Source of the DNA: Gammaproteobacteria bacterium
GTDB taxonomy: Bacteria; Pseudomonadota; Gammaproteobacteria; JAKEHO01
Direction of reading: 5' to 3'
Length of the DNA: 64,000 nt
Assembly (NCBI GenBank): GCA_022614965.1
Contig: JAKEHO010000071.1
Coordinates: 19,804-83,803 of the forward strand
A program made the position numbers and the translations under genes. The notes under the pieces are model-generated. The model worked only from the letters and a program-made list of their open reading frames with translations. It was not told the origin of the DNA and made no database searches. Shown piece after piece: positions 2,021 through 27,508 of this stretch; position 1 is the first letter of the stretch; every line of letters begins with the position of its first letter.

Positions 2021-2140
2021 GGGAGAGATTTAATTTTGGGGGCGGGCGGTGCCCGTTGCATCTCTACCTATCCCGCTTGATGTGATTGATTAACGCGATT
2101 GACGGACTTTCCTTTCAATGGGCAAGGCCTTCAATCGCCA
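2021..2140 (+). repeat. structured intergenic repeat R1 (modules A+B+C)
   Basis: gggagagatttaattttgggggcgggcggtgcccg..tctctacctatcccgcttgatgtgattg..aacgcgattgacgg...ggccttcaatcgcc. Confidence 0.9.
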
Positions 2141-2175
2141 CATTTCTAGAGCGTCATCGCAGGCGCACGCAGTAT

Positions 2176-2463
2176 TTAGCGCAGCAAGGCCTCGGGATGG
2201 CGTTCGGCGATGCGCAGGAGGGAGTGCGCAGGCCCTCTAGGCTTACGTCGGCCCTGCTCCCACTCTTGGAGGGTACGGGCGCTCACATTCATAAGGGCGG
2301 CGAATGCCTCCTGGGTTAGGCCAAGGCGTTCCCGAATCCGAACAATATCCTTTGCCGAGAGGGTCTTGTACTTACGGGTCTTCAACTTGATCTCGCCTTT
2401 CCGCCAGGCGGCGATCTCTTCCAATCCCGTGAGAATTTCCTTGCCAATATTGCGCTTACTCAT
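2176..2463 (-). CDS. XRE-family HTH antitoxin (partner of the RelE-like toxin)
   Basis: 95 aa starting at MSKRNIGKEIL. HTH segment LGLTQEAFAALMNVSARTLQEWEQGRR. ATGA overlap with the toxin stop. Confidence 0.8.
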   Translation of the reverse strand: MSKRNIGKEILTGLEEIAAWRKGEIKLKTRKYKTLSAKDIVRIRERLGLTQEAFAALMNVSARTLQEWEQGRRKPRGPAHSLLRIAERHPEALLR

Positions 2464-2774
2464 TTCAAAGTCTCCACAAGTCTTCGAATCCGCTTCAAGG
2501 TATCGGCGTCGATGTCTTCGCGCTCGCCCTTGGTATAGGCCGTCAGCAAATAAATGTGATCTTTCCTGGGTACCCAATAGTAGATCACCCGTGCGCCTCC
2601 AGATTTTCCTTTGCCGCGGATGGCCCACCTCAGCTTGCGAATTCCGCCGCTACCGCGAATGACCTTGCCCACGTCGGGCCGAGCCATGAGGAGGGTCTGC
2701 AGGGCAGTGTACTCGTCGTCACTCATGATCTTCGTGATGATGCTGGTAAAGAGCGTCGTTTCGACGAATATCAT
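2460..2774 (-). CDS. type II toxin, RelE/HigB-like
   Basis: 104 aa. Motif GGIRKLRW...GKGKSGGARVIYYW...IYLLTAYTKGEREDI is typical of RelE-family toxins. Lies upstream of, and is coupled to, the HTH antitoxin. Confidence 0.8.
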   Translation of the reverse strand: MIFVETTLFTSIITKIMSDDEYTALQTLLMARPDVGKVIRGSGGIRKLRWAIRGKGKSGGARVIYYWVPRKDHIYLLTAYTKGEREDIDADTLKRIRRLVETLK

Positions 2775-2881
2775 TTCCGCATACTACGTCATTGACGTAG
2801 TTAAGTCAAGATCCCAAACAGATCGCTGCCAATCTTGGTATTCCTCGATAAGGCTCTGGGCGCGCCAGCCGATCTATGAGG

Positions 2882-2999
2882 AGGACACAGAGGGTAGAAA
2901 AGTCGTTGGGAGTCTTTTCTTGCGTATATTTTCGGTGGCGGGCGGTGCCCGGCGTGTCGTTATATATATCCCGCTTGATGTGATCGGGCCACATCGCGG
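2882..2999 (+). repeat. repeat R2 (A with extra hairpin insertion + B + partial C)
   Basis: aggacacagagggtAGAAAAGtcgttgggagtCTTTTCTtgcgtatattttcggtggcgggcggtgcccg..tatcccgcttgatgtgatcgggccacatcgcgg. Abuts the hemolysin III stop codon. Confidence 0.85.
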
Positions 3000-3617
3000 T
3001 CAGGCGACGTACAAAACTACGGCAAGGTAGTGGGTGACGCTGCCAGTCAGTACGAATAGATGCCAGATGGCGTGGGCATGGCGAAGGCTATCAGCCACGG
3101 CGTAGAAACCGATGCCCGCGGTGTAAAACAGGCCGCCCGCTACCAACCAGACTATGCCTTGAAGGGGCAAGGCCTGCAATAACGGATTCAGGGCGATCAA
3201 GGCGAGCCAGCCCATCGCGAGATATATCACCACCGGCAGGATCCTGCGCCCTTTCCGCGGGAGAGAATCCAACACGATACCAAGGATGGCAAGACCCCAG
3301 ATCACTCCGAACAACGACCAGCCCCAGCCACCACGAAGCGTAACCAGAGTGAAGGGCGTATAGGTTCCCGCTATGAGCAAATAGATGGCATGGTGATCGA
3401 GCTTGAGGAAGACGTTTTTGGCCTTACCCTGAAGGCTGTGATAGAGCGTGGAAAAAATGTAAAGCAACAACAGGGTCGTACCATAAAGGCTAAAGCTCAC
3501 AACTTTCCAGGGGTCACCCTGGCGCGCAGCTAGAACCACGAGTACCGCTAGGCCCGCGGTTGCCGCTGCCGCGCCGATAAGGTGACTAATGCTGTTGAAT
3601 CTCTCTCCTTTATACAT
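3000..3617 (-). CDS. hemolysin III family (PAQR/YqfA-like) membrane protein
   Basis: 205 aa and 7-TM-like. N-terminal ERFNSISHLIG, plus YHS and HAxxH-type motifs typical of the hemolysin III family. Confidence 0.85.
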   Translation of the reverse strand: MYKGERFNSISHLIGAAAATAGLAVLVVLAARQGDPWKVVSFSLYGTTLLLLYIFSTLYHSLQGKAKNVFLKLDHHAIYLLIAGTYTPFTLVTLRGGWGWSLFGVIWGLAILGIVLDSLPRKGRRILPVVIYLAMGWLALIALNPLLQALPLQGIVWLVAGGLFYTAGIGFYAVADSLRHAHAIWHLFVLTGSVTHYLAVVLYVA

Positions 3618-3750
3618 CTATACATCATACATCTATACATCGCGTCGAAAGTGGAAAGGGAGAATGGAGCCAAGCTTGCATTATTGTATCATCCTTGATA
3701 AGTGTGCAGAGTTGCTATCCATGGACGCGATTTGCGATGGTTTAAAAAGG

Positions 3751-3812
3751 GGGACAGATTTATTTTCGGTTGCGAGCAGTGTCCGCCTTATCTCTAATTG
3801 TCCCGCTTGAAT
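3751..3812 (+). repeat. repeat R3 (A+B)
   Basis: gggacagatttattttcggttgcgagcagtgtccgccttatctctaattgtcccgcttgaatt. Ends about 12-15 nt before the GIY-YIG start codon. Confidence 0.9.
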
Positions 3813-3826
3813 TGCATAATATTGCA

Positions 3827-4123
3827 ATGAACTGGCACGTATACATGATTCTATGTACTGATAATTCGCTCTATACGGGGATTACCAATAATGTCGAAAA
3901 GCGTTTGTTTCGGCATACTGGACAGTATGGCGCCAAATATTTTCGCGGCCGTCGACCAGGGCAAGTGGTGTACCTCGAGAGTGGGCATACCCGCAGTTCG
4001 GCGACTCAAAGAGAGACAGCGATCAAGAAGATGCGGCGTATCGCTAAAGTCCATCTGATTGCCTCAGCAATGAACGAAGCCCCGCCTTTCACAGACGAAA
4101 TCAAAAGGATCAGCCTTGAATGA
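3827..4123 (+). CDS. GIY-YIG nuclease superfamily protein (UPF0213-like)
   Basis: Track ORF trimmed to ATG 3827. MNWHVYMILCTDNSLYTGITNNVEKRLFRH is a classic GIY..YIG N-terminus. Confidence 0.85.
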   Translation: MNWHVYMILCTDNSLYTGITNNVEKRLFRHTGQYGAKYFRGRRPGQVVYLESGHTRSSATQRETAIKKMRRIAKVHLIASAMNEAPPFTDEIKRISLE

Positions 4124-4197
4124 CATGGCGATTTACTAGTGGATCAAATGATTCAGACCGCAGGGTGGAGACAAGAAGAAGTGTAAACGAGAAGAAA

Positions 4198-4328
4198 GGG
4201 ACAGATTTATTTTCGGTTGCGGGCGGTGCCCGCTTTATCTCTATAATATATATCCCGCTTGATGTGATTTCTTGAAGCGATTTATGGGCCTTGTGCTCAA
4301 TGGGAGCTACACCCAGCCTTCAACGCCA
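4198..4328 (+). repeat. repeat R4 (A+B+C), near-consensus copy
   Basis: gggacagatttattttcggttgcgggcggtgcccgctttatctctataatatatatcccgcttgatgtgatttcttgaagcgatttatgggcc...agccttcaacgcc. Confidence 0.95.
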
Positions 4329-4381
4329 CCACCGGCTAGGACACCTCCGTTCCCTTTCGGACCAAGCCACCGGTATAACGC

Positions 4382-4411
4382 TTGACGTTATATAACGGCA
4401 GGCGTTATACT
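4382..4411 (+). promoter_or_regulatory. candidate higBA promoter with palindromic operator
   Basis: TTGACG (4382-4387), an 18-nt spacer, then TATACT (4406-4411). A perfect 12-bp palindrome CGTTATATAACG lies at 4386-4397, and CGTTATA is repeated at 4403-4409. Caveat: the -10 ends only about 7 nt before the proposed GTG start. Confidence 0.3.
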
Positions 4412-4417
4412 CTTTTG

Positions 4418-4702
4418 GTGATAAAGACCTTTCGCTCATCTGAAACAGAGTGCATCTGGAGGGGCGAAGTATCACGGCGGTTGCCACCCGCCATGCAACA
4501 CGTTGCGCGGCGTAAGCTGCGCATGCTGAACAACGCCGCTAGCTTGGGTGATCTACGGGTGCCGCCTGCCAACCGGCTGGAGGCGCTACGTGGCGCTAGA
4601 AAGGGACAGCATAGCATTCGTATCAACGATCGTTGGCGCATCTGTTTCGTGTGGAAAGGCAGTGACGCCTACGACGTGGAGATCGTGGATTATCATAGGT
4701 AG
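4418..4702 (+). CDS. higB: HigB-family toxin (plasmid maintenance system killer)
   Basis: Track ORF 4382..4702. The likely start is GTG 4418 (VIKTFRSS..). The C-terminus RINDRWRICFVWKGSDAYDVEIVDYH is typical of HigB. Confidence 0.8.
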   Translation: MIKTFRSSETECIWRGEVSRRLPPAMQHVARRKLRMLNNAASLGDLRVPPANRLEALRGARKGQHSIRINDRWRICFVWKGSDAYDVEIVDYHR

Positions 4703-4720
4703 AAGACGGAGCAGTACGTT

Positions 4721-5011
4721 ATGGCGAGACTACCCAACATACATCCCGGCGAAGTACTCCTCGAGGAGTTGTTGAAGCCGATGGGCATCAGCCAGAACAA
4801 GATCGCCCGCGAGATCGGTGTATCCCCTCGGCGGATCAACGAGATCGTACACGGCAAGCGGGCGATCACCGCGGACACCGCGCTGCGGCTGGCGAAGTAC
4901 CTTGGAGTGTCCGAGTCCTTTTGGATGGGGCTGCAGGCGGACTACGACCTGGAGGAAGCCAGGAAAGGGCTCGGTAGGAAGCTTGACCGCGTGCGGCCGC
5001 ACGCGGCCTAG
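4721..5011 (+). CDS. higA: HigA-family antitoxin (XRE HTH)
   Basis: 96 aa. HPGEVLLEELLKPMGISQNKIAREIGVSPRRINEIVHGKRAITADTALRLAKYLG is the canonical HigA sequence. Confidence 0.9.
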   Translation: MARLPNIHPGEVLLEELLKPMGISQNKIAREIGVSPRRINEIVHGKRAITADTALRLAKYLGVSESFWMGLQADYDLEEARKGLGRKLDRVRPHAA

Positions 5012-5080
5012 TCCATTGGCGTTTGATTACTGTATTTCGCCGAGCCCAAGCCGCCGGTGCAACTCACATACCGTGAGTAA

Positions 5081-5181
5081 GGGAACAGGTCGGAAAACGG
5101 ATCGGGCGTCTTTTCCGGCGTATATTTTTAGTTACGAGTGGTGCCCATCGTATATCAAACTATCCCGCTTGATGTGATTGG
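5081..5181 (+). repeat. repeat R5 (A with extra hairpin insertion + B)
   Basis: gggaacaggtcGGAAAAcggatcgggcgtcTTTTCCggcgtatatttttagttacgagtggtgcccatcgtatatcaaactatcccgcttgatgtgattg. Confidence 0.85.
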
Positions 5182-5300
5182 GTATAAAGTGTCATGTTAT
5201 ATCGCACCGTTAAGTCATCTCGTCATAGTTAGATAGTCTGCGCTCGTCACTATCATGGTTCGGTCAGAACACTCGTTACGCAAGAAAAAGGAGGTGCCTG

Positions 5301-5600
5301 ATGGATCCGAAGTCGCTAGGCGTGGTGGCGAGATTAAAGGCACGACCGGATAAGGTGAACGAACTTCGTTCCCTCTTGTTCGGACTGCTTGCCCCGACGC
5401 GACGTGAACCGGGCTGTATCCGCTACGAAATGCTCGTGAACAGGAAAGACCCGACGGAGTTTACGTTTATCGAGGAGTGGCAAGACGAACCAGCGCTCGA
5501 AGTTCATTTTGGCACAGATCATATCCGGTATGCGCTGGAGAGGTTTCCGGACCTGCTTGCAGAAGAGCTGGACGTTCGACGCTATAACCTGGTGGGCTAG
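5301..5600 (+). CDS. antibiotic biosynthesis monooxygenase (ABM) domain protein
   Basis: 99 aa. Has the pattern ARLKARPDKVNELRSLL...GCIRYEMLVNRKDPTEFTFIEEWQDEPALEVH. An RBS aaggagg lies upstream. Confidence 0.8.
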   Translation: MDPKSLGVVARLKARPDKVNELRSLLFGLLAPTRREPGCIRYEMLVNRKDPTEFTFIEEWQDEPALEVHFGTDHIRYALERFPDLLAEELDVRRYNLVG

Positions 5601-5617
5601 CTATGGACGATAATAGA

Positions 5618-5737
5618 GGAAGAGCGTCATTTTTGCGTGCGGGCGGTGCCCGGATTGTCTTTATATATTCCGCTTGATGTGATTCGTTGACGCGATCGAA
5701 GCGCTTGCCCGAGGAGGCAAGCTCCACCAATCGCGGC
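5618..5737 (+). repeat. repeat R6 (A+B+C)
   Basis: ggaagagcgtcatttttgcgtgcgggcggtgcccggattgtctttatatattccgcttgatgtgattcgttgacgcgatcgaagcgc...ccaccaatcgcggc. Confidence 0.9.
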
Positions 5738-5857
5738 TTTTAACATATCTTTGAACGAGACCAAACGCTATACTGGTTATTCGTGCCGGCTTTCGCTTTT
5801 GTTGATATCTAGACAAATTTGGCCGTTCTCTTATTTATTAGGGGTGTAAGGAAAAAA

Positions 5858-6304
5858 ATGGTAGAGCACTCCATCCAACTTTCGATACCAATTGCGTGGC
5901 TTCGCCTGAACGGCGTGTACCGCCTGTGGCGCTGGGGAGACAAGAAGAATGTGGGACTCGACTCGAATTGGGCGAAGCGAAACGTGATCTACCGATGGGT
6001 CAAAAACTCCACCGGCGAAGTCGCGACGATTGGCGAAACTGAGCGTATGTTGACTGAGCGGGCTGACACCTACTTGCAGGCGAAACGTGGGGGAGGTGCG
6101 GATCCAACCAAAAATAAGCTTTACCAAGAGCAGTCTCGACTAGAAAGGGACGGGGATTTCTTGTACCTGGAGTTCACTGAGGATGTCCTCGGATATGATC
6201 TTACCGATCAAAGCGATAGGCGGATGGCCGAGAGTCTCCTTGTGCGCGCCATCAAACCGTATTTTCAATCTACTTCAACCGAATCAAGACAATCCGACAC
6301 CTAA
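5858..6304 (+). CDS. hypothetical protein with GIY-YIG-like motifs
   Basis: Trimmed to ATG 5858 (RBS aaggaaaaaaATG). VIYRWVKNSTGEVATIGETERMLTER resembles GIY-x11-YIG-x-R, and ESLLVRAIKPYFQ resembles the C-terminal E..L...KP.N motif. Confidence 0.5.
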   Translation: MVEHSIQLSIPIAWLRLNGVYRLWRWGDKKNVGLDSNWAKRNVIYRWVKNSTGEVATIGETERMLTERADTYLQAKRGGGADPTKNKLYQEQSRLERDGDFLYLEFTEDVLGYDLTDQSDRRMAESLLVRAIKPYFQSTSTESRQSDT

Positions 6305-6552
6305 CGATTCAGGGTCACTTAGAGGACACCCATTCTGAATTCATGGCGTAGATTTAACCGTATCTTATCCTTGACCTGCGACCGAAAATAATTGTGGCTT
6401 TCGGGTGCGGCTCGCGTATAGTGTGCGCGTTGCAGTACACTTCTTGTAGTTAGTTCGGAAGTCCCTCCAGGTTTTTCGGCAGCTACTCCCGCATTCTCAC
6501 TTTCAGGAACGAACTGCAGAACATCGCAATTAAACCAAACAGAGGTATTTCC

Positions 6553-6756
6553 GTGAATACAGGCACAGTAAAGTGGTTCAACGATAGTAAGGGCTACGGC
6601 TTTATTACCCTTGAGGACGGGAGCAAGGATGTATTCGTGCATCACTCCGCCATCGAGGGTGATGGCTTCAAATCCCTGACCGAGGGCCAAAAGGTGACGT
6701 TCGAAATCGAGCAAGGCCCGAAGGGTCCGTCGGCAGTGAAAGTTCAGGCGGCCTAA
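6553..6756 (+). CDS. CspA-family cold-shock protein
   Basis: 67 aa. [15 protein letters not shown] (RNP1) and VFVHHSAI (RNP2). GTG start, preceded by more than 200 nt without ORFs, as is usual for csp leaders. Confidence 0.95.
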
Positions 6757-6792
6757 GCGTCAAGTACTGCGCAAGCAGGTTTTAGACGAAGA

Positions 6793-6817
6793 CCCCGCCA
6801 CCCGGCGGGGTTTTTTT
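6793..6817 (+). terminator. rho-independent terminator after csp
   Basis: CCCCGCC-accc-GGCGGGG followed by TTTTTTT. Confidence 0.85.
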
Positions 6818-6847
6818 CTTGGAGGGATAAGGTATCAGGAACCTTTT

Positions 6848-6909
6848 GACAACCTATTTTTAGTTGCGGGCGGTGCCCGTCAGGGATTGGAGGGTCAGGT
6901 CTTCAATTG
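6848..6909 (+). repeat. repeat R7 (A + C-like hairpin, B missing)
   Basis: gacaacctatttttagttgcgggcggtgcccgtcagggattggagggtcaggtcttcaattg. Confidence 0.75.
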
Positions 6910-6981
6910 TGAATCTCATTTGCCCATCCATGCGAGCACGTTGATGCCTGTGATCGCATGTGACTAAGTGATGGTAGAAAG

Positions 6982-7302
6982 ATGAGTAATAAACTGGGCG
7001 GTAGGGTAGTTTATATCGTTCCGCGGACTTGGCTCGGGCGTCTAGTTGCCTTCGTGGCCATTGTCGCGGTGTTTTTTTTGGGTATATTGTTCTTTGCTGT
7101 TTTTCTCGCAGCAATTGCCGCTGTCGCTGCTGTCGTAATCGCGCGGATATTATGGCTTCAGAGGCAAATCCGTCGACAGGGGTCGAAAGATTTCATTGAA
7201 GTGGAGTACACAGTGGAAGACACTGAAACGCGCCGGCCGGGCGAGATAGCACAATCGGATTCACAACGCGCAAAGGACCACGAAAATGAAGCGAATCACT
7301 GA
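6982..7302 (+). CDS. hypothetical membrane protein
   Basis: 106 aa with two hydrophobic helices (LVAFVAIVAVFFLGILFFAVFLAAIAAVAAVVIA) and a charged tail. Confidence 0.55.
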   Translation: MSNKLGGRVVYIVPRTWLGRLVAFVAIVAVFFLGILFFAVFLAAIAAVAAVVIARILWLQRQIRRQGSKDFIEVEYTVEDTETRRPGEIAQSDSQRAKDHENEANH

Positions 7303-7337
7303 CTCTCGAAAGCTACGCAATAAAAACAAAATAAAGT

Positions 7338-7400
7338 GGGGACAGATTTATTTTCGGTCGCGGGCGGTGCCCGAATTATCTCTTATCCCGCTTGATGTGA
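7338..7400 (+). repeat. repeat R8 (A+B)
   Basis: ggggacagatttattttcggtcgcgggcggtgcccgaattatctcttatcccgcttgatgtga. Confidence 0.95.
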
Positions 7401-7482
7401 AATCGTACAACACGGAAGTCCGGCAAAGGAAGCTCATCGGAACTCTGTTGATTGCGCAAACAGTCGCGTAACTCTGGTGCGC

Positions 7483-8727
7483 CTAGTCGCTCGCAGGGGC
7501 ACTAAAACCGGGCGGATATTTCTGCCACGGGTAGCCTTCCCGCGCCAGTTGATAGGCGTAGTCAAACAACTTCCGCATATAGTCGGTATCAAAATCCATT
7601 TTATGTTCGGCATTGAAATTCGCGCCGATATACGCGAGGTTATAGTCAATTCCATCCCGTTGAGCAATCGTGTATATCTGATAAAGGTCGCCAACGCCCT
7701 GGGTTTGAATGAGTGACGATATAGTGCGACTCAGAATGTCCAAGGTGCGTCGGTCTACGGAGGCCCAATCCGGGTCAAGGCGGGCATTGCGGATAATGTA
7801 AAGTGTTCTGTCGCGTTCGAAATGGCGGACTTTGGATTCCTCGCCTATGTTCAGAGAGGGCGGATAGGTAAAGACCTGCGCCATCGCCCCGCCGTCGACA
7901 TGCATTTCGTGATAGGGCGTTCCATCGACCTCGACATCGATCATGGTGGGAGGAAACGCCCCTGGAATAGCGGCCGATGCCACCATGATGTTACGGAACA
8001 GATCCACCGCCTTGGGATCCTTACTCGCCGCGATCGCGCCCATGTTCCAGATGACTGGCCGGCGCGCGTCCAGGTCAGTTGTCGCAATCATGAGAAAGCG
8101 GCCCTTGTTATATTCGTTTGCTATCTCGACCAACATTGCTTCGTCGATATACTGCGAGACCAGCTGCCATAAAGGTCGATTGTCAGCCATCGCGTCATCG
8201 AATACTGCGGCGAAGATGGTTCTTTTCTCGAGAACATCGTCTTGGGAAATTGTCGTATAGAGTTTCTTCAACGTGTCGTCATAGGCAGGGCCGAGGAAGG
8301 CAAAGGGGGCAATCAAGGCGCCCGTGCTGATCCCGGTTACCAGCTTGAATTCCGGGCGATTCCCGGCGTCAGTCCATCCAACCAGCAGTCCGGCACCGAA
8401 AGCCCCATTGTCACCGCCGCCGGAAATTGCAAGAAAATTAACTGGCGGCAGGGGACCGCGGTGTCCGGATCGAGCCAGGAACTGCTTCTCTCGCTCCATA
8501 CCCGCTAAAGCGAACGGGAGTATCGATTCAACACCGGAATCAGCAAAGAAACGCGCGTCGGGAATGCCGGGGACGGTGGCTTGTGTGGTGAACTCTGCCG
8601 GCACTGCGTCCCGGCGAGTCGGAAGGGCGCAGCCTTGAAGCAGAAGCAAAAATACGGTTACTGACAAGAAGCAGTTCCGGGGCAAACTGCTAGGGGTAAA
8701 TGGTTGGTAAGTTTCTTGTTTTTTCAC
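7483..8727 (-). CDS. patatin-like phospholipase, lipoprotein
   Basis: 414 aa. Lipobox LLLQGC, oxyanion GGGDNGAFGAG, nucleophile GISTGA (GxSxG), and DGG. Confidence 0.9.
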   Translation of the reverse strand: MKKQETYQPFTPSSLPRNCFLSVTVFLLLLQGCALPTRRDAVPAEFTTQATVPGIPDARFFADSGVESILPFALAGMEREKQFLARSGHRGPLPPVNFLAISGGGDNGAFGAGLLVGWTDAGNRPEFKLVTGISTGALIAPFAFLGPAYDDTLKKLYTTISQDDVLEKRTIFAAVFDDAMADNRPLWQLVSQYIDEAMLVEIANEYNKGRFLMIATTDLDARRPVIWNMGAIAASKDPKAVDLFRNIMVASAAIPGAFPPTMIDVEVDGTPYHEMHVDGGAMAQVFTYPPSLNIGEESKVRHFERDRTLYIIRNARLDPDWASVDRRTLDILSRTISSLIQTQGVGDLYQIYTIAQRDGIDYNLAYIGANFNAEHKMDFDTDYMRKLFDYAYQLAREGYPWQKYPPGFSAPASD

Positions 8728-8877: not shown

Positions 8878-8930
8878 GGGGACAGAATCATTTTTGGTTG
8901 CGGGCGGTGTCCGGCTTATTTCTAACTATG
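8878..8930 (+). repeat. repeat R9 (A + partial B)
   Basis: ggggacagaatcatttttggttgcgggcggtgtccggcttatttctaactatg. Confidence 0.85.
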
Positions 8931-9054
8931 CCTCTTTTTGCGACTTCCGTCACAGTTTCGCGAGCGGGATTGTGACTCATTTCACACTGCAGGTGACCAT
9001 CTATAACTAGCATTATGGGGTGCATCCATTTGTAGAGGGCGCGAGGGTTTAACA

Positions 9055-9456: not shown

Positions 9457-9478
9457 GAGACATAAAAACTAAATAAAA

Positions 9479-9598
9479 CGTACCGATTTATTTGCGTTTT
9501 CGGGCGCGACCCACGCCCCAACTCTAACTATCCCGCATGATGTGATGGGTTGAAGCGATTGGAGGGCCCTGTCTTCACCAGGCAAGGGCTCCAATCGC
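9479..9598 (+). repeat. repeat R10 (diverged A + B + C)
   Basis: cgtaccgatttatttgcgttttcGGGCGcgacccaCGCCCcaactctaactatcccgcatgatgtgatgggttgaagcgattggagggcc...gggctccaatcgc. Confidence 0.85.
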
Positions 9599-9621
9599 TT
9601 CCATTTGGTGCGCGGTCGTCT

Positions 9622-10113
9622 CTAATCAAGATAGATGCCGCTACCCACGATAAGTGTTTTGCCACCTGATTCGACTTTTTTGACATAGGTCAGCTTTTTC
9701 GCATCCTTACCTTCGCTTGGCTTTGGCCATGTGTATTCAACCCATCCTGATGGATTTGTCTGTACGGCCGCGACAATCTCTTGAAACACGAATGTGCCCT
9801 TGGGATCCTGAAGGTTTGTTAAATTTTGCCCTTGCAAATTGGGATCGGCCGGGTGACAGATAACTGTGCCACTCATATCATCGATAAAAATATAGGTATC
9901 GTCATGAAACCATTGACTGTCCGGCTGCTTGAACGCTTCACAAGCACGTTCCGCTCCTTCGCTCGAAACCAGTGCCGCCGCACTATCAACCAGCGATACG
10001 AGTTGCTGTTTGCTCTCGTCGCTGGCCCTTTGACACGCATACAGGGCTCCTGTTAATAGAAGGACAGCCCAAATAAGAAATAAAGGACGGGCATTTAAAG
10101 CGGCTGTTTTCAT
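9622..10113 (-). CDS. periplasmic Cache-like (sCache_2-type) domain protein
   Basis: Start moved to ATG 10113, because the RBS aaggaggg sits inside the longer ORF. Signal peptide present. WFHDDTYIFIDDMSGTVICHP...GWVEYTWPKP...GSGIYLD. Paralog of 37021..37512. Confidence 0.75.
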   Translation of the reverse strand: MKTAALNARPLFLIWAVLLLTGALYACQRASDESKQQLVSLVDSAAALVSSEGAERACEAFKQPDSQWFHDDTYIFIDDMSGTVICHPADPNLQGQNLTNLQDPKGTFVFQEIVAAVQTNPSGWVEYTWPKPSEGKDAKKLTYVKKVESGGKTLIVGSGIYLD

Positions 10114-12742: not shown

Positions 12743-12745
12743 CGA

Positions 12746-12901: not shown

Positions 12902-13044
12902 GCGGGAACGTGGCTATCAGTCCTTGTAAGACTGCTTAAGCAACGGGACGGGGAGCGGGAAGGTGGTCAGGCCTGAATAATCGAATTGTCCTCATTGGCG
13001 GTTTTAGTTGCTTGATGGCGCGTAAGTCGAAGATCGAATAAAAA

Positions 13045-13163
13045 AAGACAGAGTTATTGTCGATAATGTGCGGTTCCTGCCGCACCTCTAATGTCCCGCG
13101 TGATGTGATCGGTGAAGCGATTGATAGCGTCTTGCCTTACCGGACAAGGACTTCAATCGCGGC
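13045..13163 (+). repeat. repeat R11 (A+B+C, covarying stems)
   Basis: aagacagagttattgtcgataatGTGCGGttcctgCCGCACctctaatgtcccgcgtgatgtgatcggtgaagcgattgatagcg...ggacttcaatcgcggc. Confidence 0.9.
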
Positions 13164-13237
13164 CTTTAAAGATGTATGCGGGAGTAATGGAGACGAGACG
13201 AGGCGGTTTGTTGCGTGCCCAATATCCCGATCCTCCT

Positions 13238-15231: not shown

Positions 15232-15383
15232 GGGGACAGCCTAATCTTTTGACAGCTTTAATCCGTCGCTGCGTTTTTATAAATGGAAAATCCAGCAAAC
15301 GGACGGTGCCTGTCTCATCTCTAACTATCCCGCTTAACGTGATTGCTTGAAGTGATCTCAGCGGCTAGCTGAGTTCAACCATC
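15232..15383 (+). repeat. repeat R12 (A interrupted by a ~45-bp insertion + B + C)
   Basis: ggggacagcctaatcttttgacag[..insert..]ggacggtgcctgtctcatctctaactatcccgcttaacgtgattgcttgaagtgatctcagcggctagctgagttcaaccatc. Confidence 0.8.
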
Positions 15384-17515: not shown

Positions 17516-17893
17516 ATGGCAAACAAAAAAATTCTTACACCGATGGTAGCGGCGATTGGTACGACGTTTGTTATTTCGTTGGCAGCCAGCCCGCTTGTAA
17601 ATGCTGCTGAAAACCCGTTTTCAATGAATAATCTTTCGAGGGGTTTTATGGTAGCTGCAGCCGAAGATGAAGGCCGCAGGTGTGGTACCTTTTGTGGCGG
17701 TGTTACTGAAAGTGGGAACCCACGGGGCGGTGAAGCAAAGTGCGCTAACATGTGTGCTGAGGTAAAAAAGTGCGGTACCTTTTGTGCTGGTTTTAATGAA
17801 ACTGGGGAACCGCGGGTAACAGCAGAGGGCTTGGGCGGTGAAGTAGCCAAGTGCGGTAACATTTGTGCTGCTGATCCGAGACTCAAGGAGTAA
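17516..17893 (+). CDS. bufferin/HvfA-type RiPP precursor (Sec signal, 8 Cys)
   Basis: ATG 17516 follows the RBS ggaggg. Signal peptide ..SPLVNAAE, then the NPFSMNNLSRGFMVAAAE motif. Four C-x3-C motifs (CGTFC, CANMC, CGTFC, CGNIC). Immediately upstream of the DUF692 and DUF2063 genes. Confidence 0.75.
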   Translation: MANKKILTPMVAAIGTTFVISLAASPLVNAAENPFSMNNLSRGFMVAAAEDEGRRCGTFCGGVTESGNPRGGEAKCANMCAEVKKCGTFCAGFNETGEPRVTAEGLGGEVAKCGNICAADPRLKE

Positions 17894-20785: not shown

Positions 20786-20804
20786 TATCGACGGGTAGTG
20801 GCGG

Positions 20805-20840: not shown

Positions 20841-20892
20841 CGCACCTGATAAGCCGTTAGTTAACTGGGTCGAATCTTCAGCTCTAGTTGCG

Positions 20893-21132: not shown

Positions 21133-21140
21133 AAAGATAA

Positions 21141-21258
21141 ATGGGATAGGTGCTTCTTTATGGGCAGAGCCCGTCCCATTTCCGATTATCCCGCGTAACG
21201 TGATTGCTTGAAGCGATTGATAGGGCCTTGCTTTGACTGCGGAGGCTTCAATCGCGGC
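21141..21258 (+). repeat. repeat R13 (diverged A + B + C)
   Basis: ATGGGAtaggtgcttctttatGGGCagaGCCCgTCCCATttccgattatcccgcgtaacgtgattgcttgaagcgattgatagggccttgc...ggaggcttcaatcgcggc. Confidence 0.9.
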
Positions 21259-21360
21259 GTTTTATTACGTCGTTGAGGGGATGCGGCAGGTAATGCTAGG
21301 ATGCACGAGGTACGCATAGTTGAACTCAATCGTCGTACCTATAACAATGAGAGGCATAAA

Positions 21361-21711: not shown

Positions 21712-21790
21712 GCTATATGTAGAACTTCGCTGAATCAGCGATTTGGAAAAAACGGATAGACTTATTTCTAGTTGTTGCGGGAGGTGGGCC

Positions 21791-22438
21791 ATGAGTACAA
21801 ATGAAGCGCGCCCAATGCCGACGATTGAGCTGGCAAAAAACGGTCCCTACCTAGTAAAGAATTTAACGGGGCTGCGTAACTCGAAGGGCGATAAACTGCG
21901 GATCAAAGCGGTGATTGCGCTCTGCCGTTGCGGCGGCTCGGCGAATAAGCCGTTTTGCGACGGGACTCATTCCAAAACTGGGTTTTCCGGCGAAAATCTG
22001 TCCGATGGCAGCATGGATAAGCGCGACAACTATGTGGGCAAAAAAATCACTATCCATGATAATCGGGGCATTTGCGCCCACGCTGGCAAGTGCGCCAATG
22101 GCTTGCCCTCGGTGTGGCGTGTGGGAGTCGAACCCTGGATTGATCCCGGCGGCGCTGACGTCGAAGCAATTATTGAAACCGTTAGGCAGTGTCCATCCGG
22201 CGCGCTGAGCTATTCCATTGGTGGGGATGAGCACCGCGACCAAGATCGAGTTCCAGCGGTATATGTATCAAAAGATGGTCCGTATCACGTTACAGGTGGA
22301 GTCGAACTGAAAGATGTGCCTCGAGGTGACGGCGCTTCTGAAGAACACTACACACTGTGCCGATGTGGTGGCTCTAATAACAAACCGTTTTGTGATGGCA
22401 CGCATGGGTACATCAAGTTTCAGGACGACAAGAACTAA
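21791..22438 (+). CDS. CDGSH iron-sulfur domain protein
   Basis: ATG 21791 follows the RBS gggagg. Two CDGSH motifs (CRCGGSANKPFCDGTH, CRCGGSNNKPFCDGTH) flank a Cys-rich central segment. Confidence 0.9.
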   Translation: MSTNEARPMPTIELAKNGPYLVKNLTGLRNSKGDKLRIKAVIALCRCGGSANKPFCDGTHSKTGFSGENLSDGSMDKRDNYVGKKITIHDNRGICAHAGKCANGLPSVWRVGVEPWIDPGGADVEAIIETVRQCPSGALSYSIGGDEHRDQDRVPAVYVSKDGPYHVTGGVELKDVPRGDGASEEHYTLCRCGGSNNKPFCDGTHGYIKFQDDKN

Positions 22439-22450
22439 CAAGGAATAAGT

Positions 22451-22566
22451 ACGGATTGATTTCGGGTTACGGGCAGTGTCTGTCGTGTCTCTAACTGCCC
22501 CCCTTGATGTGACGGGTTGACGCGATTGATGGGTCTAGTCTCAGGCAGGCAAGGATCAAATCACGG
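22451..22566 (+). repeat. repeat R14 (diverged A+B+C)
   Basis: acggattgatttcgggttacGGGCAGtgtctgtcgtgtctctaaCTGCCCcccttgatgtgacgggttgacgcgattgatgggtc...aaggatcaaatcacgg. Confidence 0.8.
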
Positions 22567-22580
22567 TGTGTTAATGCTCG

Positions 22581-23201
22581 TCACTTGATAAGCATCACAT
22601 CAGGCGACGTATTTGTAGGCTTCGGTGAAATTGGAACCCTTGTTGAACGTATCGCTTCTGCGGTCCACGTATTACACGTATTGAATGCATGGTATTTACC
22701 CTTGGCGAGATAAAAACGACTGTCTGTATATAGCCCGTCACCGATAAATGCAGACTTACCATGCTGGTCCCTTTCGAAACTGTCATCGATATATCGGACC
22801 AAACTGTCGAACTGGGCTTGCGACAACCGAAGCGTCGCGATCTCGCTGCTCCGGTAGTACTGCTGCGGAGGTGATGGGATCCCATGGACATGTAGAACAC
22901 TTAGTGAAGGGGTCAACAGAGCCTGTAATGCTAATGCCAGGGTGGGTTTTTTTGCTTGATAAAATACCTTGTCACCCCAACCAAATTCCAAGTAGCGTGC
23001 TTTTGGGAAATCATCCTTTTCGGGCAACAAAGTGTATGGCACGTCGCTCTTTTTTATGATGATTCCGCTATGCAGGCCATAATCGATGACATAGACGTAT
23101 TTTGAAGGCTCCGCTTCGGGCGATGGGGAGGGACGGTCAGTGGTGACGGAACAAGCAGCGCATGGAAGCAGTATAATGAATATGAGAAATAAAGGTCGCA
23201 T
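22581..23201 (-). CDS. TIGR02117-family lipoprotein (conserved hypothetical)
   Basis: Trimmed to ATG 23201 (RBS gaggtggg). Lipobox-like ACS. YLEFGWGDKVFY...VLHV...GDGLYTDSRFYLAKGKYHAFNTCNTWTAEAI. Confidence 0.75.
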   Translation of the reverse strand: MRPLFLIFIILLPCAACSVTTDRPSPSPEAEPSKYVYVIDYGLHSGIIIKKSDVPYTLLPEKDDFPKARYLEFGWGDKVFYQAKKPTLALALQALLTPSLSVLHVHGIPSPPQQYYRSSEIATLRLSQAQFDSLVRYIDDSFERDQHGKSAFIGDGLYTDSRFYLAKGKYHAFNTCNTWTAEAIRSTRVPISPKPTNTSPDVMLIK

Positions 23202-23303
23202 AATGCCCACCTCAACTGCAGAAAAAAGTGGACAGATTAGTTTGCGATTACGGGCTGCTTCTGGACAAAAATACATGAAACCACTCTATGGAGGAGAAAA
23301 ACC

Positions 23304-23597
23304 ATGGCTACATTTATCAGCCTTCTTAATTTTACCGATCAGGGGATCCGCAACGTCAAGCAATCGCCAGACCGCGCTAAGAAGTTTAAGGAAATGGCGC
23401 AAAAGGCCGGCGTTATGCTGAAGAACATTTACTGGACAGTGGGTTCTTATGACCTCGTGGCTATTGTAGAAGGACCAGATGATGAGACGACGTCGTCCCT
23501 ACTTTTGAGTCTTGGAGCCCTTGGCAACGTCCGTACTCAGACCTTACGCGCTTTTTCTGCTGAAGAGATGAGTCGAATCATCGCCAAGATGCCATAG
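23304..23597 (+). CDS. GYD domain protein
   Basis: 97 aa. MATFISLLNFTDQGIRNVKQSPDRAKKFKEMAQKAG...WTVGSYDLVAIVEGPDDE is the typical GYD-family sequence. Confidence 0.9.
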   Translation: MATFISLLNFTDQGIRNVKQSPDRAKKFKEMAQKAGVMLKNIYWTVGSYDLVAIVEGPDDETTSSLLLSLGALGNVRTQTLRAFSAEEMSRIIAKMP

Positions 23598-23604
23598 AGA
23601 AAAT

Positions 23605-23625
23605 GGGACAGATTTATTTCGCTTA
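23605..23625 (+). repeat. repeat R15 (5' fragment of module A only)
   Basis: gggacagatttatttcgctta. Same truncation style as R21, and likewise placed at the 3' side of a DUF899 gene. Confidence 0.7.
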
Positions 23626-23660
23626 AACTCTTTGCGACACCTTCTTCGATCTTCGGCGAT

Positions 23661-24328
23661 TCAAACCGCCAGTGGAGAGTACCAGTTGCCACGGCGCCCC
23701 GGTGTGGTGTCTAAGACGTTCCACAGCGGCCACATCGGATCCCTATGGCGCACATCGCCTTCCACCTCGGTATACCAGAGCTCCGATCCGAAAAAGCGAT
23801 GGATTGGGTCATTTCGCAGCACAAATACATTAGCCATTGGCGTGTGTGCGCCTTTCGCATCCTCGGCGAAGTAGTCGCTGTGGTAGCTGTTGTTTGCGGA
23901 TGAGAGCAAACACAAATTGTTCCAACCGCGCACCTATGCGAACTCGACGATCCGTTCGGTGGGCGAGCGCGCGGCTACCGCGAAATTGATCCGCTGCATG
24001 ATGTGGCGTGCATTGCCATCGAGCCCATCGAGGAGCGAGTTGCACGTCGGGCACGGTTTATCCATCTTCGGCCCATACAGGAACCGTAATGGAACAACGC
24101 GTCCTTATCGCCTTCGAACAGCTCCGACAGCCTGATCTTGCATACCTTTCCGCTGTGGTTCAGCTTCTCGAACACGTAGTCCGCTCTGACCACGCGGCCT
24201 AGTTGCACCGTTTTCGGCAGTGGCGCTATGCGTTCGATCTGCTGTCTGAGCCCGAGCCGTGCTTTCAGGAGATCATTTCGGGCTTGGCGGTATTCAGTTG
24301 TTTCGTTCGGAAACTTGGGGGTTGTCGT
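23661..24328 (-). pseudogene. DUF899 (thioredoxin-like) pseudogene, decayed paralog of 30883..31551
   Basis: Aligns along its whole length with the intact copy. The start codon ATG is ACG here (24326-24328). A 1-nt deletion lies in ..LFHYG|.. near 24070. AAG is changed to an in-frame TAG (EFA*VRGW) near 23935. The track splits it into ORFs 23661..23933 and 23975..24208. Confidence 0.85.
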
Positions 24329-24537
24329 TGGTATCTCCGCCTCTGTTACAAGTCAGTAGGAGTGTCCTATACGGGCAAACGGGGAGGAGTAACGGACATT
24401 CTACGGCTTCAAGAGAAGCTTGCCCAGCGGCTGCGGTGACGATTGCAGCTTCTATCCGTTTTCTGTAGCCGGTGATCAAAGCTGTGACCGCCGTTGGAGG
24501 GATCAGGTCTCGTAGTGCTAGGTCTGAATATCCTTAC

Positions 24538-24653
24538 AAAGACAGGTTTATTTTCGGTTGCGGGCGGCGCCCGTGTAATCTCTTCTGGCGTCGTATGATT
24601 GGCTGACGCGATTGAAGGCCTTACTGAGTTAAGAAAGACCCATCAATCGTGGC
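24538..24653 (+). repeat. repeat R16 (A + diverged B + C)
   Basis: aaagacaggtttattttcggttgcgggcggcgcccgtgtaatctcttctggcgtcgtatgattggctgacgcgattgaaggcc...gacccatcaatcgtggc. Confidence 0.9.
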
Positions 24654-24823
24654 GGTTTAATTGCGAGGTTGGCTATCGGACCTGGTGAACTATTTCGCCT
24701 TCTAACTTGCAAAATAGGCTTGCTACAGACCAGGAAGTGCCCAAAAATACACTTATAAAAACGGGATGAGTTTAAAGCGACCTCTTCCTGTTCGACACAC
24801 AATGAAGTACGCGAAAGGGTTAA

Positions 24824-26056
24824 TTGCCCATGGCGTTCAGTCTTGATGAGTTCTATCGCCTTAACCGGCGTGCACTGATTTGGATAATTCTTGCTGTCCT
24901 ATTGTGGTTATTACGTGATTTCGTTGATCTTATTTTTCTCACGTTTATGCTCGCCTTTATCGCCACGCCGTTGTTCCGCCTTGGACAAAAATGGCTAAGA
25001 CTACCGTATCGCATTTCGCTGGTTGTGGTTTATCTTGTATTTCTTTTGATCCTGTCTGCTTTCATAAGATACGTCACGCCAACTGTAATATTTGAAGCAA
25101 ACCAGTTTCTTGCGAACCTGAGGGAGTCTGAGCAAAGAATCGTTCAGTTGGAGAGCGATTTAGTTGACAAGTATCCGAGCATTGATCGTGCGGTGCGCGG
25201 ATATGTGCGCGGTTTTCTTGATGAAGGGACACTTGAAATTATACGCAATCAGTTACTTGAGGAACGCAAGCGTCTCGAGATCTCTGATGAGGATCTCGCC
25301 GATTATTTTTACGGGCAGCCGCTGAATAGTGAGACCGCGGCAAGCATCGATATATACTTCGCGTATGAAGATCGGTTGCTTATCGAATCCTTTCTTGCAC
25401 AAAAAGCATCTGTCTTCCGCGAACACGTTCCCAGGCTAACTAATGCTCTTTATCAGGCCCTGGCGACCGTACTGCTTGCGTTATTATTCAGCTTTCTGAT
25501 CCTCGTTGATATTGTGAGGCTCAGCAGGCTGATGGAAAGTCTTAGAGATTCGCGTTTACGTGATTTCTACAGTGAGACGGCCGAACCTGTGGCCCGTTTC
25601 GGGTATATGGTTGGAAGAGGTATTCAGGCGCAAGCCATGATCGCGTTGGTTAATACGTTTTTGACAATTTGTGGACTATTTATTTTATCGATTCCGGCGA
25701 TGGCCGTGCTTTCGGTGATTGTGTTTGTTTGCAGCTTCATACCTGTCCTGGGCGTTTTGATATCGACCGTCCCAATCCTACTGGTAGCGCTCAATTCCGG
25801 TGGTCTCCAGCTTGGGGTCGCGGTGTTGGTTCTCATAATAGTGATCCACGCAATCGAGGCATATCTACTTAATCCGCTGATTTATGGCAGGCATTTCAGA
25901 CTGAACCCCGTCATCGTGTTGACTATTTTGTTAGTCGGCTATCATCTTTTTGGAATTTGGGGGCTATTGCTCGGCGTACCTGTCGCGCAGTATTTCATTC
26001 ATCACGTCTTCGGAGTACCCGTATTCCGCGAGGCCCGGATTGAATCTGCAAACTAG
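24824..26056 (+). CDS. AI-2E family transporter (PerM/UPF0118)
   Basis: 410 aa, multi-TM, with a long central soluble loop. The C-terminal LNPLIYGRHFRLNPVIVLTILLVGYHLFGIWGLLLGVP is typical. The start is either TTG 24824 or ATG 24830. Confidence 0.85.
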   Translation: MPMAFSLDEFYRLNRRALIWIILAVLLWLLRDFVDLIFLTFMLAFIATPLFRLGQKWLRLPYRISLVVVYLVFLLILSAFIRYVTPTVIFEANQFLANLRESEQRIVQLESDLVDKYPSIDRAVRGYVRGFLDEGTLEIIRNQLLEERKRLEISDEDLADYFYGQPLNSETAASIDIYFAYEDRLLIESFLAQKASVFREHVPRLTNALYQALATVLLALLFSFLILVDIVRLSRLMESLRDSRLRDFYSETAEPVARFGYMVGRGIQAQAMIALVNTFLTICGLFILSIPAMAVLSVIVFVCSFIPVLGVLISTVPILLVALNSGGLQLGVAVLVLIIVIHAIEAYLLNPLIYGRHFRLNPVIVLTILLVGYHLFGIWGLLLGVPVAQYFIHHVFGVPVFREARIESAN

Positions 26057-26166
26057 ACTCATTGATTACGTATAAATGGGGGCTAACGGAAAAAGGACGG
26101 TTCCCGCTGAAGGAGCGTCGGCCCGGTCAGATTTTAAATTGTGAAGTTCATGCCTGACACAAAGTA

Positions 26167-26212
26167 GGGGGACAGGCTTGTTTTGGTTACGGGTGGTGCC
26201 CCGCTGATCTCG
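26167..26212 (+). repeat. repeat R17 (module A only)
   Basis: gggggacaggcttgttttggttacgggtggtgccccgctgatctcg. Ends 12 nt before the DUF429 start codon. Confidence 0.8.
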
Positions 26213-26224
26213 AGTTATGCCGCA

Positions 26225-26947
26225 ATGATGAGGTATATTGGGGTTGATGGGTGCTGTAGCGGCTGGTTTTGGGTCGGGCTCTCTGACAGATCAGATTGGC
26301 GCACTGGGATTTGTAAAAGTGCCAAGGCCCTCGGTGCCGTAGCGGCGGCGTCGAGGGTGACCCTTATTGACGTGCCCATTGGCCTTCGTGATGCGGGGTG
26401 CGAAGAACGCCTATGTGACAAAGTCGCACGGCGGGCACTTGGGCCACGGGCCTCTAGTGTTTTTCCGGCACCCGCGAGAGCGACGCTCGCAGCGGAAGAT
26501 TACACGCAAGCCAAGGGGATTAATCGCGAAGTGCTCGGTCGTGGCCTCAGCCTCCAATCGTGGGCTATCACCCCAAAGATAAGAGAGATTGATGATCTCC
26601 TGCGGAGCCCGGGTGGTCTGCGAAACTTAGTGAGAGAAGTTCATCCGGAGGTATGTTTCTGGGGCCTTAACGGCAAGCGCCCTATGGCCCACAACAAGAA
26701 AAAGCGAGCGGGTCGTGAAGAACGTGTTGAACGGATGACGAAGATACTCCCCGAGACCTCGTCGATCATCGCCTGTGTTGCTCGTATCTATCACCGGCGC
26801 GATGTCGCATGGGATGACATCCTCGATGCACTCGTTGCGGCCATTACAGCCAAACTTGGTGCCGGCAGGCTACAGACTCTCCCCGCCAAGCCGGCGACTG
26901 ACGCTTTCGGCTTGCCAATGGAGATGGTCTTTACAGAGCTATCGTAA
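26225..26947 (+). CDS. DUF429 domain protein
   Basis: Trimmed to ATG 26225. MMRYIGVDGCCSGWFWVGL is the typical DUF429 N-terminus. Confidence 0.8.
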   Translation: MMRYIGVDGCCSGWFWVGLSDRSDWRTGICKSAKALGAVAAASRVTLIDVPIGLRDAGCEERLCDKVARRALGPRASSVFPAPARATLAAEDYTQAKGINREVLGRGLSLQSWAITPKIREIDDLLRSPGGLRNLVREVHPEVCFWGLNGKRPMAHNKKKRAGREERVERMTKILPETSSIIACVARIYHRRDVAWDDILDALVAAITAKLGAGRLQTLPAKPATDAFGLPMEMVFTELS

Positions 26948-26952
26948 GATAA

Positions 26953-27011
26953 GGCGACAGGTCTAGTTTCGCTAATGGCCGATGCCTGGGTTATCTCTCG
27001 CTATCCGCTTG
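26953..27011 (+). repeat. repeat R18 (diverged A+B)
   Basis: ggcgacaggtctagtttcgctaatggccgatgcctgggttatctctcgctatccgcttg. Overlaps the last codons of the minus-strand ORF 27001..27318. Confidence 0.65.
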
Positions 27012-27318
27012 CCCCGCGCAATGCCTTGAGTTTGGCAATCTCATCCCGCCTGTCTGTCACTTGGGCCAGCATAATGCCTAACTCAAGTATCCCGCTTGCT
27101 AAAACGGCACCCGTTGCGTCATCCACCGACTCAATCGTGAGCATCTTTTCGTAGCATTTTTTAGGCAATTGTCCGAATTGTTGTTTGTATAGCGCTAGGT
27201 TAAAAGCAAGGAGTCTGGCACATTCTGCCAGATCCTCCTTACTGGAATCTGCCATGAGCTCATTAATTTGCATGTAGAAGTTCTTAAATTTTTCGAGGTC
27301 GTCAGATAGATCAGCCAT
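27001..27318 (-). CDS. hypothetical protein (helical)
   Basis: 105-aa ORF. RBS gaggagag upstream. No family recognised. Confidence 0.5.
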   Translation of the reverse strand: MADLSDDLEKFKNFYMQINELMADSSKEDLAECARLLAFNLALYKQQFGQLPKKCYEKMLTIESVDDATGAVLASGILELGIMLAQVTDRRDEIAKLKALRGASG

Positions 27319-27441
27319 GCGGATGCTCTCCTCAGTCCATCGATAGCTATAGTACGTCCCTCTACGAACAATAAAAAGACTAGAGCAAGCAGGGGCGCAG
27401 ACTAACTGACGCTCGTAAGGTCAACCAAGGAACGGGATAAA

Positions 27442-27508
27442 GGGACAGAGTTATTCTTGGGGACGGGCACCTCCGTCCCATCTTTCACGCCCGCTTGATG
27501 TAATTGAT
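27442..27508 (+). repeat. repeat R19 (A+B, covarying inner stem)
   Basis: gggacagagttattcttgggGACGGgcacctCCGTCccatctttcacgcccgcttgatgtaattg. Confidence 0.9.

Follow-up and report, generated by a model that had tools for sequence, protein, structure and literature searches.

The DNA analyzed here is a 64,000-nucleotide (nt) stretch of a contig from the metagenome-assembled genome of an uncultured gammaproteobacterium (JAKEHO010000071.1, positions 19,804 to 83,803; hereafter the window, with negative numbers for positions to its left), which shares with the adjoining sequence an array of about 25 small gene cassettes, approximately 34.5 kb long, with a short intergenic repeat present at roughly one copy per intergenic gap, as judged from gene maps of the public annotation. 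The cassette units are either single genes or toxin-antitoxin pairs, and their genes include a RelE/MqsA-like pair, HigB/HTH (twice), GIY-YIG, ABM, CspA (CSD), HlyIII, two patatins and an HD domain protein, while seven open reading frames (ORFs) of the array have no family in Pfam and/or NCBIfam. Taken together, the intervening genes look like integron cassettes. The GC content varies within the array from 0.46 to 0.61, and a few longer multi-gene stretches carry no recognizable repeat.

The core of the repeat, about 75 nt long, is composed of a purine-rich lead, the 5' arm GGGACAGATTTATTTTCGGTT (GGGACAGAT), the hairpin GCGGGC-GGT-GCCCGC, the 3' arm TTTATCTCT (ATCTCT), an AT-rich stretch, which is either AAC or (TA)n of 0-12 nt, and TATCCCGCTTGATGTGAT. 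The last of these, module B, is the best-conserved segment in the alignment. Module A, preceding it, has two stems, GGGA(C)/(G)TCCC and AGAT/ATCT, with a one-sided bulge between them, and ends in the GC hairpin. In about half of the copies a module C is also present, i.e., a long hairpin GCGATTGA...TCAATCGC followed by GGCnTTTAA, and in several copies (R1, R2, R6, and R14, numbered as below) the segment downstream of B pairs back onto it (GATGTG/CACATC). Conservation stops at ...TTGATGTGAT. The two palindromic modules of the repeat consensus are genuine.

An nhmmer profile built from eight full copies was applied alongside a direct-repeat search, and at least 24 copies were found from −2545 to 31859, all (100%) on the + strand and none on the − strand. 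The window itself contains 21 of them, between 2017 and 31859 (best E 1e-37), and the 9.6 kb read to the left of it (locus L060) added three more, at −2545, −1441, and −695. A two-module pattern search gave 5 matches against 0 expected by chance, and the repeat family is far above chance. No copy was detected by nhmmer in the flanks, that is, in 7 kb on the left and 32 kb on the right (31.9-64 kb), about 39 kb in total; the repeat is thus restricted to a single locus in the DNA that was read. The hairpin is decayed in about a third of the copies, and lone 5' arms at 21754, 23230, 23606, and ~30830 represent remnants of the repeat. The copies within the window, with two of the lone arms, are as follows.

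R1, 2017..2161, + strand: full copy, core A+B and module C; nhmmer 123.8 bits, E 1e-37; flanked by a gene for 209 amino acids (aa; −) and the MqsA/RelE pair (−)
R2, 2925..2999, + strand: core only, variant 5' arm, found by nhmmer; its B (GATGTG) pairs with CACATC immediately ahead of the HlyIII (−) stop codon
R3, 3746..3832, + strand: core with an altered B (TTGAATTGCA) and a matching partner downstream; divergent promoter gap, HlyIII (−) / GIY-YIG (+)
R4, 4193..4320, + strand: full copy; the sole perfect 6-bp GCGGGC/GCCCGC stem; (TA)n expansion
R5, 5121..5181, + strand: core only, R2-type variant 5' arm; upstream site of the ABM cassette
R6, 5613..5758, + strand: full copy, starting 13 nt past the ABM stop codon
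R7, 6855..6881, + strand: remnant, inner hairpin alone, after the CspA cassette; nhmmer E 0.008
R8, 7337..7400, + strand: core only; convergent gap, 106-aa gene (+) / patatin (−)
R9, 8878..8936, + strand: core with diverged B; divergent gap, patatin (−) / 133-aa gene (+)
R10, 9475..9623, + strand: full copy; enlarged inner-hairpin loop; 13-bp module C stem; z −3.1 and −3.5
R11, 13040..13183, + strand: full copy; inner hairpin GTGCGG/CCGCAC, shifted in register; GCGGGA downstream is the partner of B
R12, 15298..15368, + strand: copy without the 5' arm; B variant GCTTAACGTGAT; different second hairpin
R13, 21136..21280, + strand: full copy; variant arms ATGGGA/TCCCAT
Lone 5' arm (GGATAGACTTATTT), 21754..21767, + strand: remnant in the gap ahead of the zf-CDGSH gene
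R14, 22444..22588, + strand: full copy; TGATGTGA pairs with TCACATCA ~100 nt downstream
R15, 23225..23264, + strand: degenerate 5' half; nhmmer E 0.006
Lone 5' arm (GGACAGATTTATTT), 23606..23619, + strand: 8 nt past the GYD stop codon, at the left edge of the decayed DUF899 copy
R16, 24535..24675, + strand: modules A and C kept, B replaced
R17, 26168..26224, + strand: degenerate core, found by nhmmer
R18, 26950..27009, + strand: degenerate core, starting 3 nt past the DUF429 stop codon
R19, 27437..27511, + strand: core; register-shifted 7-bp hairpin GGGACGG/CCGTCCC; fold p=0.004 against shuffles
R20, 28265..28323, + strand: degenerate core, found by nhmmer
R21, 31755..31859, + strand: last recognizable copy, the right end of the array

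Two details of these copies were recorded separately. A (TA)n tract of varying length lies between the 3' arm ATCTCT and TATCCC at 2962-2969, 4238-4252, 5659-5666, and −647 (copy Rm1), which looks like slippage within the bulge of the proposed outer stem. The variant 5' arm GGGnGTCTTTTCnnGCGTATATTTT is common to R2 and R5 (2890-2925 and 5085-5121), despite their unrelated upstream cassettes, and in R5 it forms a small hairpin of its own.

The repeat starts 0-35 nt past the stop codons of + strand genes or abuts the stop codons of − strand genes, and the 5' ends of genes lie 100-250 nt from the nearest copy. About nine copies are located in tandem (+ +) gaps, three in tandem (− −), six in convergent and five in divergent ones. 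Because its contexts include tandem, convergent and divergent gaps, the repeat is independent of transcription units, and such a mixture, together with the unvarying strand, speaks against a terminator, a 3' untranslated region (UTR) or a cis-regulatory RNA. The cumulative GC skew climbs over the whole window (it is uniformly positive), and by this skew the + strand, which carries all the copies, is the lagging-strand template. An intrinsic terminator was also considered and rejected, since the orientation is fixed whatever the gene direction, five copies occupy divergent gaps and only four copies pass even a loose hairpin-plus-T-tail rule. Promoter readings were likewise discarded: sigma-70-like matches occurred at the level of shuffled sequence, none of them on a repeat, and in a sigma-54 reading of the hairpin the spacing, checked by eye, is 2 nt off.

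Cassettes of the array have been both re-assorted and duplicated. The ABM cassette, together with both flanking repeats, recurs at 82% identity and among other neighbors in a 2.2-kb metagenome contig (L122). On its left, that contig has a tRNA-Arg-like gene and a ~28-nt segment similar to the 3' terminus of the HD gene which precedes copy −695 of the array, and on its right an unrelated 203-aa gene; in its left site, the 5' flank of window copy −695 is joined with the 3' flank of window copy 5107. Here and in L122 alike, the ABM cassette starts directly after ...GATGTGAT and lacks module C, which puts the junction behind B and makes module C part of the next cassette. Within the array, the DUF899 cassette occurs twice (23661-24361 and 30883-31584, 72-76% identity); of the first copy only decayed fragments are left, and a lone 5' repeat arm stands ahead of each.

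The tRNA-Arg(TCG)-like gene of L122 (377-451) scores 32 bits with Rfam and is rejected by ARAGORN for an aberrant T arm. The repeat array of that organism begins ~45 nt past it, which suggests a tRNA-linked island there. The idea that the repeat is itself a tRNA-derived att site was dropped, as no similarity to the tRNA-Arg 3' half was found in L122.

We propose, with belief and doubt in about equal measure, that the repeats are recombination sites bounding the cassettes of a chromosomal array, equivalent in function to the attC sites of integrons and served by an enzyme encoded elsewhere. With one same-strand copy per cassette gap at one locus, it is reasonable to regard the genomic organization as the one expected for attC-type sites. 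A cassette would then comprise a single gene or toxin-antitoxin pair, oriented either way and with its own upstream region included, and would end on the + strand in the ~75-nt site, i.e., the lead with GGGACAGAT, the GC hairpin, ATCTCT, the AT-rich bulge, and TATCCCGCTTGATGTGAT. The junction with the next cassette would fall at or just past ...GATGTGAT, and the optional module C hairpin (GCGATTGA...TCAATCGC) would be the start of the following cassette. A site-specific enzyme from elsewhere in the genome might recognize the conserved sequence, perhaps in a single-stranded, folded form, and would insert, excise or shuffle cassettes. The peak of conservation in B fits recognition by a sequence-specific protein.

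Whether the fold of the repeat is under selection bears on this proposal. The sequence-only reading of this DNA had claimed that the inner hairpin differs in sequence between copies and always pairs, that compensatory substitutions maintain the outer stem as well, and that the folded single strand is therefore the functional form. Every string quoted in its support was found in its place: the GCGGGC hairpin string GCGGGCGGTGCCCG at 2042, 2938, 4219, 5639, 6866, and 7360 (with the GGC-loop variant at 24560), GTGCGGTTCCTGCCGCAC at 13068, GGACGGGCACCTCCGTCC at 27461, GGGCGCGACCCACGCCC at 9502, and GGGCAGAGCCC at 21162 for the other inner hairpins, and, for the outer arms, GGGACAGAT at 3751 and ATCTCTAATTGTCCC at 3790 in R3, GACAGAG at 13047 and CTCTAATGTC at 13086 in R11, and ATGGGA at 21141 and TCCCAT at 21174 in R13. 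The GCGGGC/GCCCGC stem, claimed for R1, R2, R4, R6, R7, R8, and R16, is a perfect 6-bp stem in R4 only (inner GC hairpin against shuffles, p=0.015); the sixth pair is G.T in R1, R7, and R16, G.G in R2 and R6, and G.A in R8. Far from always pairing, the inner hairpin beats its own shuffles (p<0.05) in just 6 of 24 copies, and the inner region is no better than shuffles (p>0.3) in Rm1, R2, R3, R9, R14, R17, R18, R21, and L122b. The hairpins of R10, R11, and R19 are register-shifted or contain indels, which is not column-wise compensation, and the T-to-G change of R11, supposedly matched by an A-to-C change, appears in the alignment as a 2-nt register shift onto the conserved CTCT with no double change.

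Covariation was tested in 24 copies (22 from this genome and 2 from L122) in three ways, by a column-wise count of pairs, by swapping inner arms, and by swapping outer arms between copies. Cells were paired in 70.6% of cases versus 71.2 +/- 0.9% in column shuffles, 7 cells were changed on both sides versus 7.3 expected, and the covariation score was 0.154 versus 0.170 in the control. Cognate inner arms gave −8.40 kcal/mol versus −7.98 after swapping (p=0.13), and cognate outer arms −5.95 versus −6.18 kcal/mol (p=0.74); in the outer stems of module A only 48-76% of cells are paired. For eight copies of module C, RNAalifold kept only an invariant 8-bp stem, with an unfavorable covariation term, and among the five full copies folded the module C hairpin reached z of −2.4 to −3.5 in three and −0.6 to −1.9 in two. 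The pairing is therefore a matter of consensus conservation, and compensatory changes are no commoner than chance. As the 24 copies give no significant covarying pairs, selection on the fold is not demonstrated by covariation, and by its own standard the sequence-only reading loses this argument. Weak support for the fold remains in the aggregate, since the six copies least like the consensus hairpin jointly fold better than shuffles (Fisher p ~0.001), driven by R19, R11, and R13. Folding of both strands, a check proposed with the original claim, yielded about equal energies, so the choice of strand is not set by the fold. Of the classes in which that reading had looked for a functional folded form, attC-type sites fit the genomic context even though the covariation argument fails, IS200/IS605-type ends are a minority possibility, and both repetitive extragenic palindromic (REP) elements and structured RNAs fit poorly.

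The closest known counterparts are the attC sites of integrons, as in the Vibrio cholerae repeat (VCR) arrays of Vibrio and in clusters of attC sites lacking integron integrases (CALINs). There, as here, one site in one orientation lies directly 3' of the ORF of each cassette, the array occupies one locus, and the homogeneous sites are imperfect palindromes with a variable terminal part; the cassettes, rich in toxin-antitoxin pairs and ORFans, undergo duplication and re-assortment. The clustering of same-orientation sites in one array, their VCR-like homogeneity, a site length of 62-150 nt with a variable terminal hairpin, and the integron-typical gene content would all suit an ordinary CALIN or sedentary chromosomal integron, with a divergent, lineage-specific attC family and an IntI gene farther along the 230-kb contig. 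We nevertheless hold this to be improbable. A strict scan for RYYYAAC...GTTRRRY boxes with complementary R and L boxes gave 0 matches on both strands from −9.6 to 64 kb, none of the 5 matches of a relaxed AAC...GTT scan fell on a repeat, and the sole AAC-like motif (TCTCTAAC), located 3' of the hairpin as a mirror image of attC, is missing from more than half of the copies. The repeat thus lacks the canonical boxes; its most conserved part is the unpaired 3' tail (TATCCCGCTTGATGTGAT), whereas in attC it is the paired R boxes, and where attC has a two-sided central spacer, the repeat has a 6-7 nt bulge on one side. The conserved structure with varying sequence (compensatory change) that is expected of attC was not found in the 24 copies. 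Many cassettes are inverted and have their own upstream regions, unlike those of integrons. No intI or pseudo-intI was detected in the flanks read, 7 kb beyond the left end and 32 kb beyond the right end, and as to a complete integron, which has intI, attI, and Pc by the first cassette, no Phage_integrase domain, pseudo-integrase or IntI1-like tblastn match turned up in the 74 kb examined (−9.6 to 64 kb). A second, independently evolved integron-like gene-capture system, moved by an enzyme other than an integron integrase, is an unlikely, though not remote, candidate. Its site would be the same ~75-nt hairpin-plus-tail (GGGACAGAT ... GCGGGCGGTGCCCGC ... ATCTCT ... TATCCCGCTTGATGTGAT), and candidates for its enzyme would include an HUH-type nuclease that cuts single strands in the CTTGAT/GTGAT tail and an unrelated recombinase whose gene lies off the array. 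The pdif modules of Acinetobacter plasmids are likewise small, are often toxin-antitoxin pairs and lie between short recombination sites in varied contexts; pdif sites, however, are 28-bp XerC/XerD sites of alternating orientation, while the sites here are all direct repeats, and no dif-like sequence is present.

The hairpin, followed ~12 nt on by a conserved single-stranded tail and ~10 nt past the junction by a second hairpin, and the location of every copy on the lagging-strand template by GC skew recall the ends of IS200/IS605 elements and palindrome-associated transposable elements (PATEs), with their strict replication strand bias and cleavage-type tails; a fixed pentanucleotide, TTGAT, may stand at the junction, and the tail contains both TTGAT, the ISDra2 target, and CTTGAT, the core of the pC194/phiX174-type nick site. 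Non-autonomous HUH-type single-strand transposons (IS200/IS605, PATE, or rolling-circle ones like IS91) carrying cargo would then be inserted head to tail, A+B being the right end, the tail (CTTGAT / TTGATGTGAT) recreating the next target, and module C the left-end hairpin. This is doubtful: IS200/IS605 elements have the same type of hairpin at both ends, but here the A hairpin (GCGGGC-GGT-GCCCGC) bears no sequence relation to the C hairpin, module C is missing from about half of the cassettes and junctions, the units carry ordinary cargo genes, and no TnpA or other Y1/Y2 HUH gene was found within the 74 kb read. Head-to-tail arrays of this sort are not known as a feature of the IS200/IS605 family. 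The modular, imperfectly palindromic A/B/C build, the many decayed copies and lone half-sites, the four copies that pass the loose hairpin-plus-T-tail rule and the lack of an enzyme nearby could instead indicate a locally spread repeat with no part in cassette recombination, acting, if at all, at the RNA or nucleoid level (as a terminator, mRNA stabilizer or protein-binding site), like the 60-150 nt intergenic elements of the REP/bacterial interspersed mosaic element (BIME), enterobacterial repetitive intergenic consensus (ERIC) and BOX types or miniature inverted-repeat transposable elements (MITEs). REP/BIME, ERIC and BOX elements, however, are scattered throughout a genome in either orientation and are associated with 3' ends or the inside of operons, while this repeat keeps one strand whatever the gene orientation, forms no inverted pairs, and occupies five divergent promoter gaps, which are no place for a terminator or 3'-UTR element. 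The array has about one copy per gap, whereas the ~39 kb of chromosome on either side of it has 0 (74 kb of the genome being read), and the repeat is all but missing from the 185,579 species genomes, the metagenome collection and IMG/VR; we regard this explanation too as rather unlikely. Least probable is a structured RNA (a cis-regulatory element or small RNA) from the + strand, to which point an excess of G.T over A.C pairs (33 versus 15) in the two best helices and the TTGAA/TTTAA pairing in module C, which requires + strand wobble. The G.T excess can stem from mutation bias, because the + strand is the G/T-rich leading strand; moreover, the 24 copies show no covariation, none of the repeats has an Rfam match at the gathering threshold or at E<=5, the two strands fold about equally well, and the position is not tied to transcription units.

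Several points weigh against reading the repeats as cassette-boundary sites. Mobility is deduced from one cross-genome comparison and one duplication, and the position of the crossover is tentative, because the sites flanking the ABM orthologues are similar at the family level only. The lone 5' arms at 21754, 23606, and ~30830 are unlike the leftovers of clean site-specific recombination, covariation that would show that the fold matters was found neither in the 24 copies nor in module C, and no gene from −9.6 to 64 kb encodes an integrase, transposase or other recombinase domain. Finally, only one other contig, L122, carries the repeat in the public collections searched. Scanning the 185,579 species genomes with TATCCCGCNTGATGTGAT gave 57 single matches in unrelated taxa (about 70 being expected by chance in our own estimate), none of them real by nhmmer; the two-module pattern gave 70 loci in the metagenome collection, with a real repeat in L122 only, and the IMG/VR scan 83 loci with no real repeat. 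Other public contigs with exact array proteins belong to the same organism and are 100% identical (GCA_973794095.1; Logan SRR16971104 and SRR16971108). Contigs with ABM homologues at 70-77% identity (L139, L145, and L232) have no repeat, and in the metagenome-assembled genome of Acidiferrobacterales with the closest cluster representative of the HTH_37 neighbor, core genes surround it and no repeats were found. Searched as text strings, the repeat motifs had no match in the literature, and a keyword search returned standard integron papers only.

Some further features of the region deserve mention. At the left edge of the array (L060 13598-17673, window −6614 to −2539) a 767-aa ORFan with a weak HARE-HTH match is followed by a HerA-like ATPase (PADLOC HerA, E 2.6e-13), the stop codon of which abuts the first repeat; the two form a possible two-gene defence cassette, and the 767-aa protein has no significant match in Pfam (sub-threshold only), NCBIfam, PADLOC, or PDB. 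One cassette (6424-6818) contains, besides a 67-aa cold-shock gene, a segment that matches the cspA thermoregulator over its full length (Rfam RF01766, 98 bits), i.e., a regulated housekeeping-type gene is placed inside the cassette array. A 47-nt direct repeat (81% identity, 90 nt apart; 17680-17726 and 17770-17816) within a 125-aa ORF directly upstream of MbnB/HvfC-type genes could represent a precursor-peptide motif that is repeated. Two 163-aa sCache/dCache-domain proteins are encoded at 9622-10113 (−), in the array, and at 37018-37512 (+), 5 kb past its end. Outside the array, a 171-nt direct repeat (75% identity; 60805-60975 and 61629-61799) overlaps adjoining 114- and 136-aa ORFs.

As a point of method, examples of "compensatory" change chosen by hand from a repeat family may not survive simple permutation controls. 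Apart from integrons, for which IntI and the attC signature are the defining features, no well-understood system is known to stockpile single-gene cassettes in arrays. The 34-kb array described here has integron-like architecture and gene content, yet its sites fail the attC signature and no integrase is encoded nearby. If the mobility of its cassettes is confirmed, either the repertoire of such sites is far more divergent than detection tools assume or cassette capture has a second enzymatic basis, and in both cases the search for cassette reservoirs in uncultured bacteria would be broadened.

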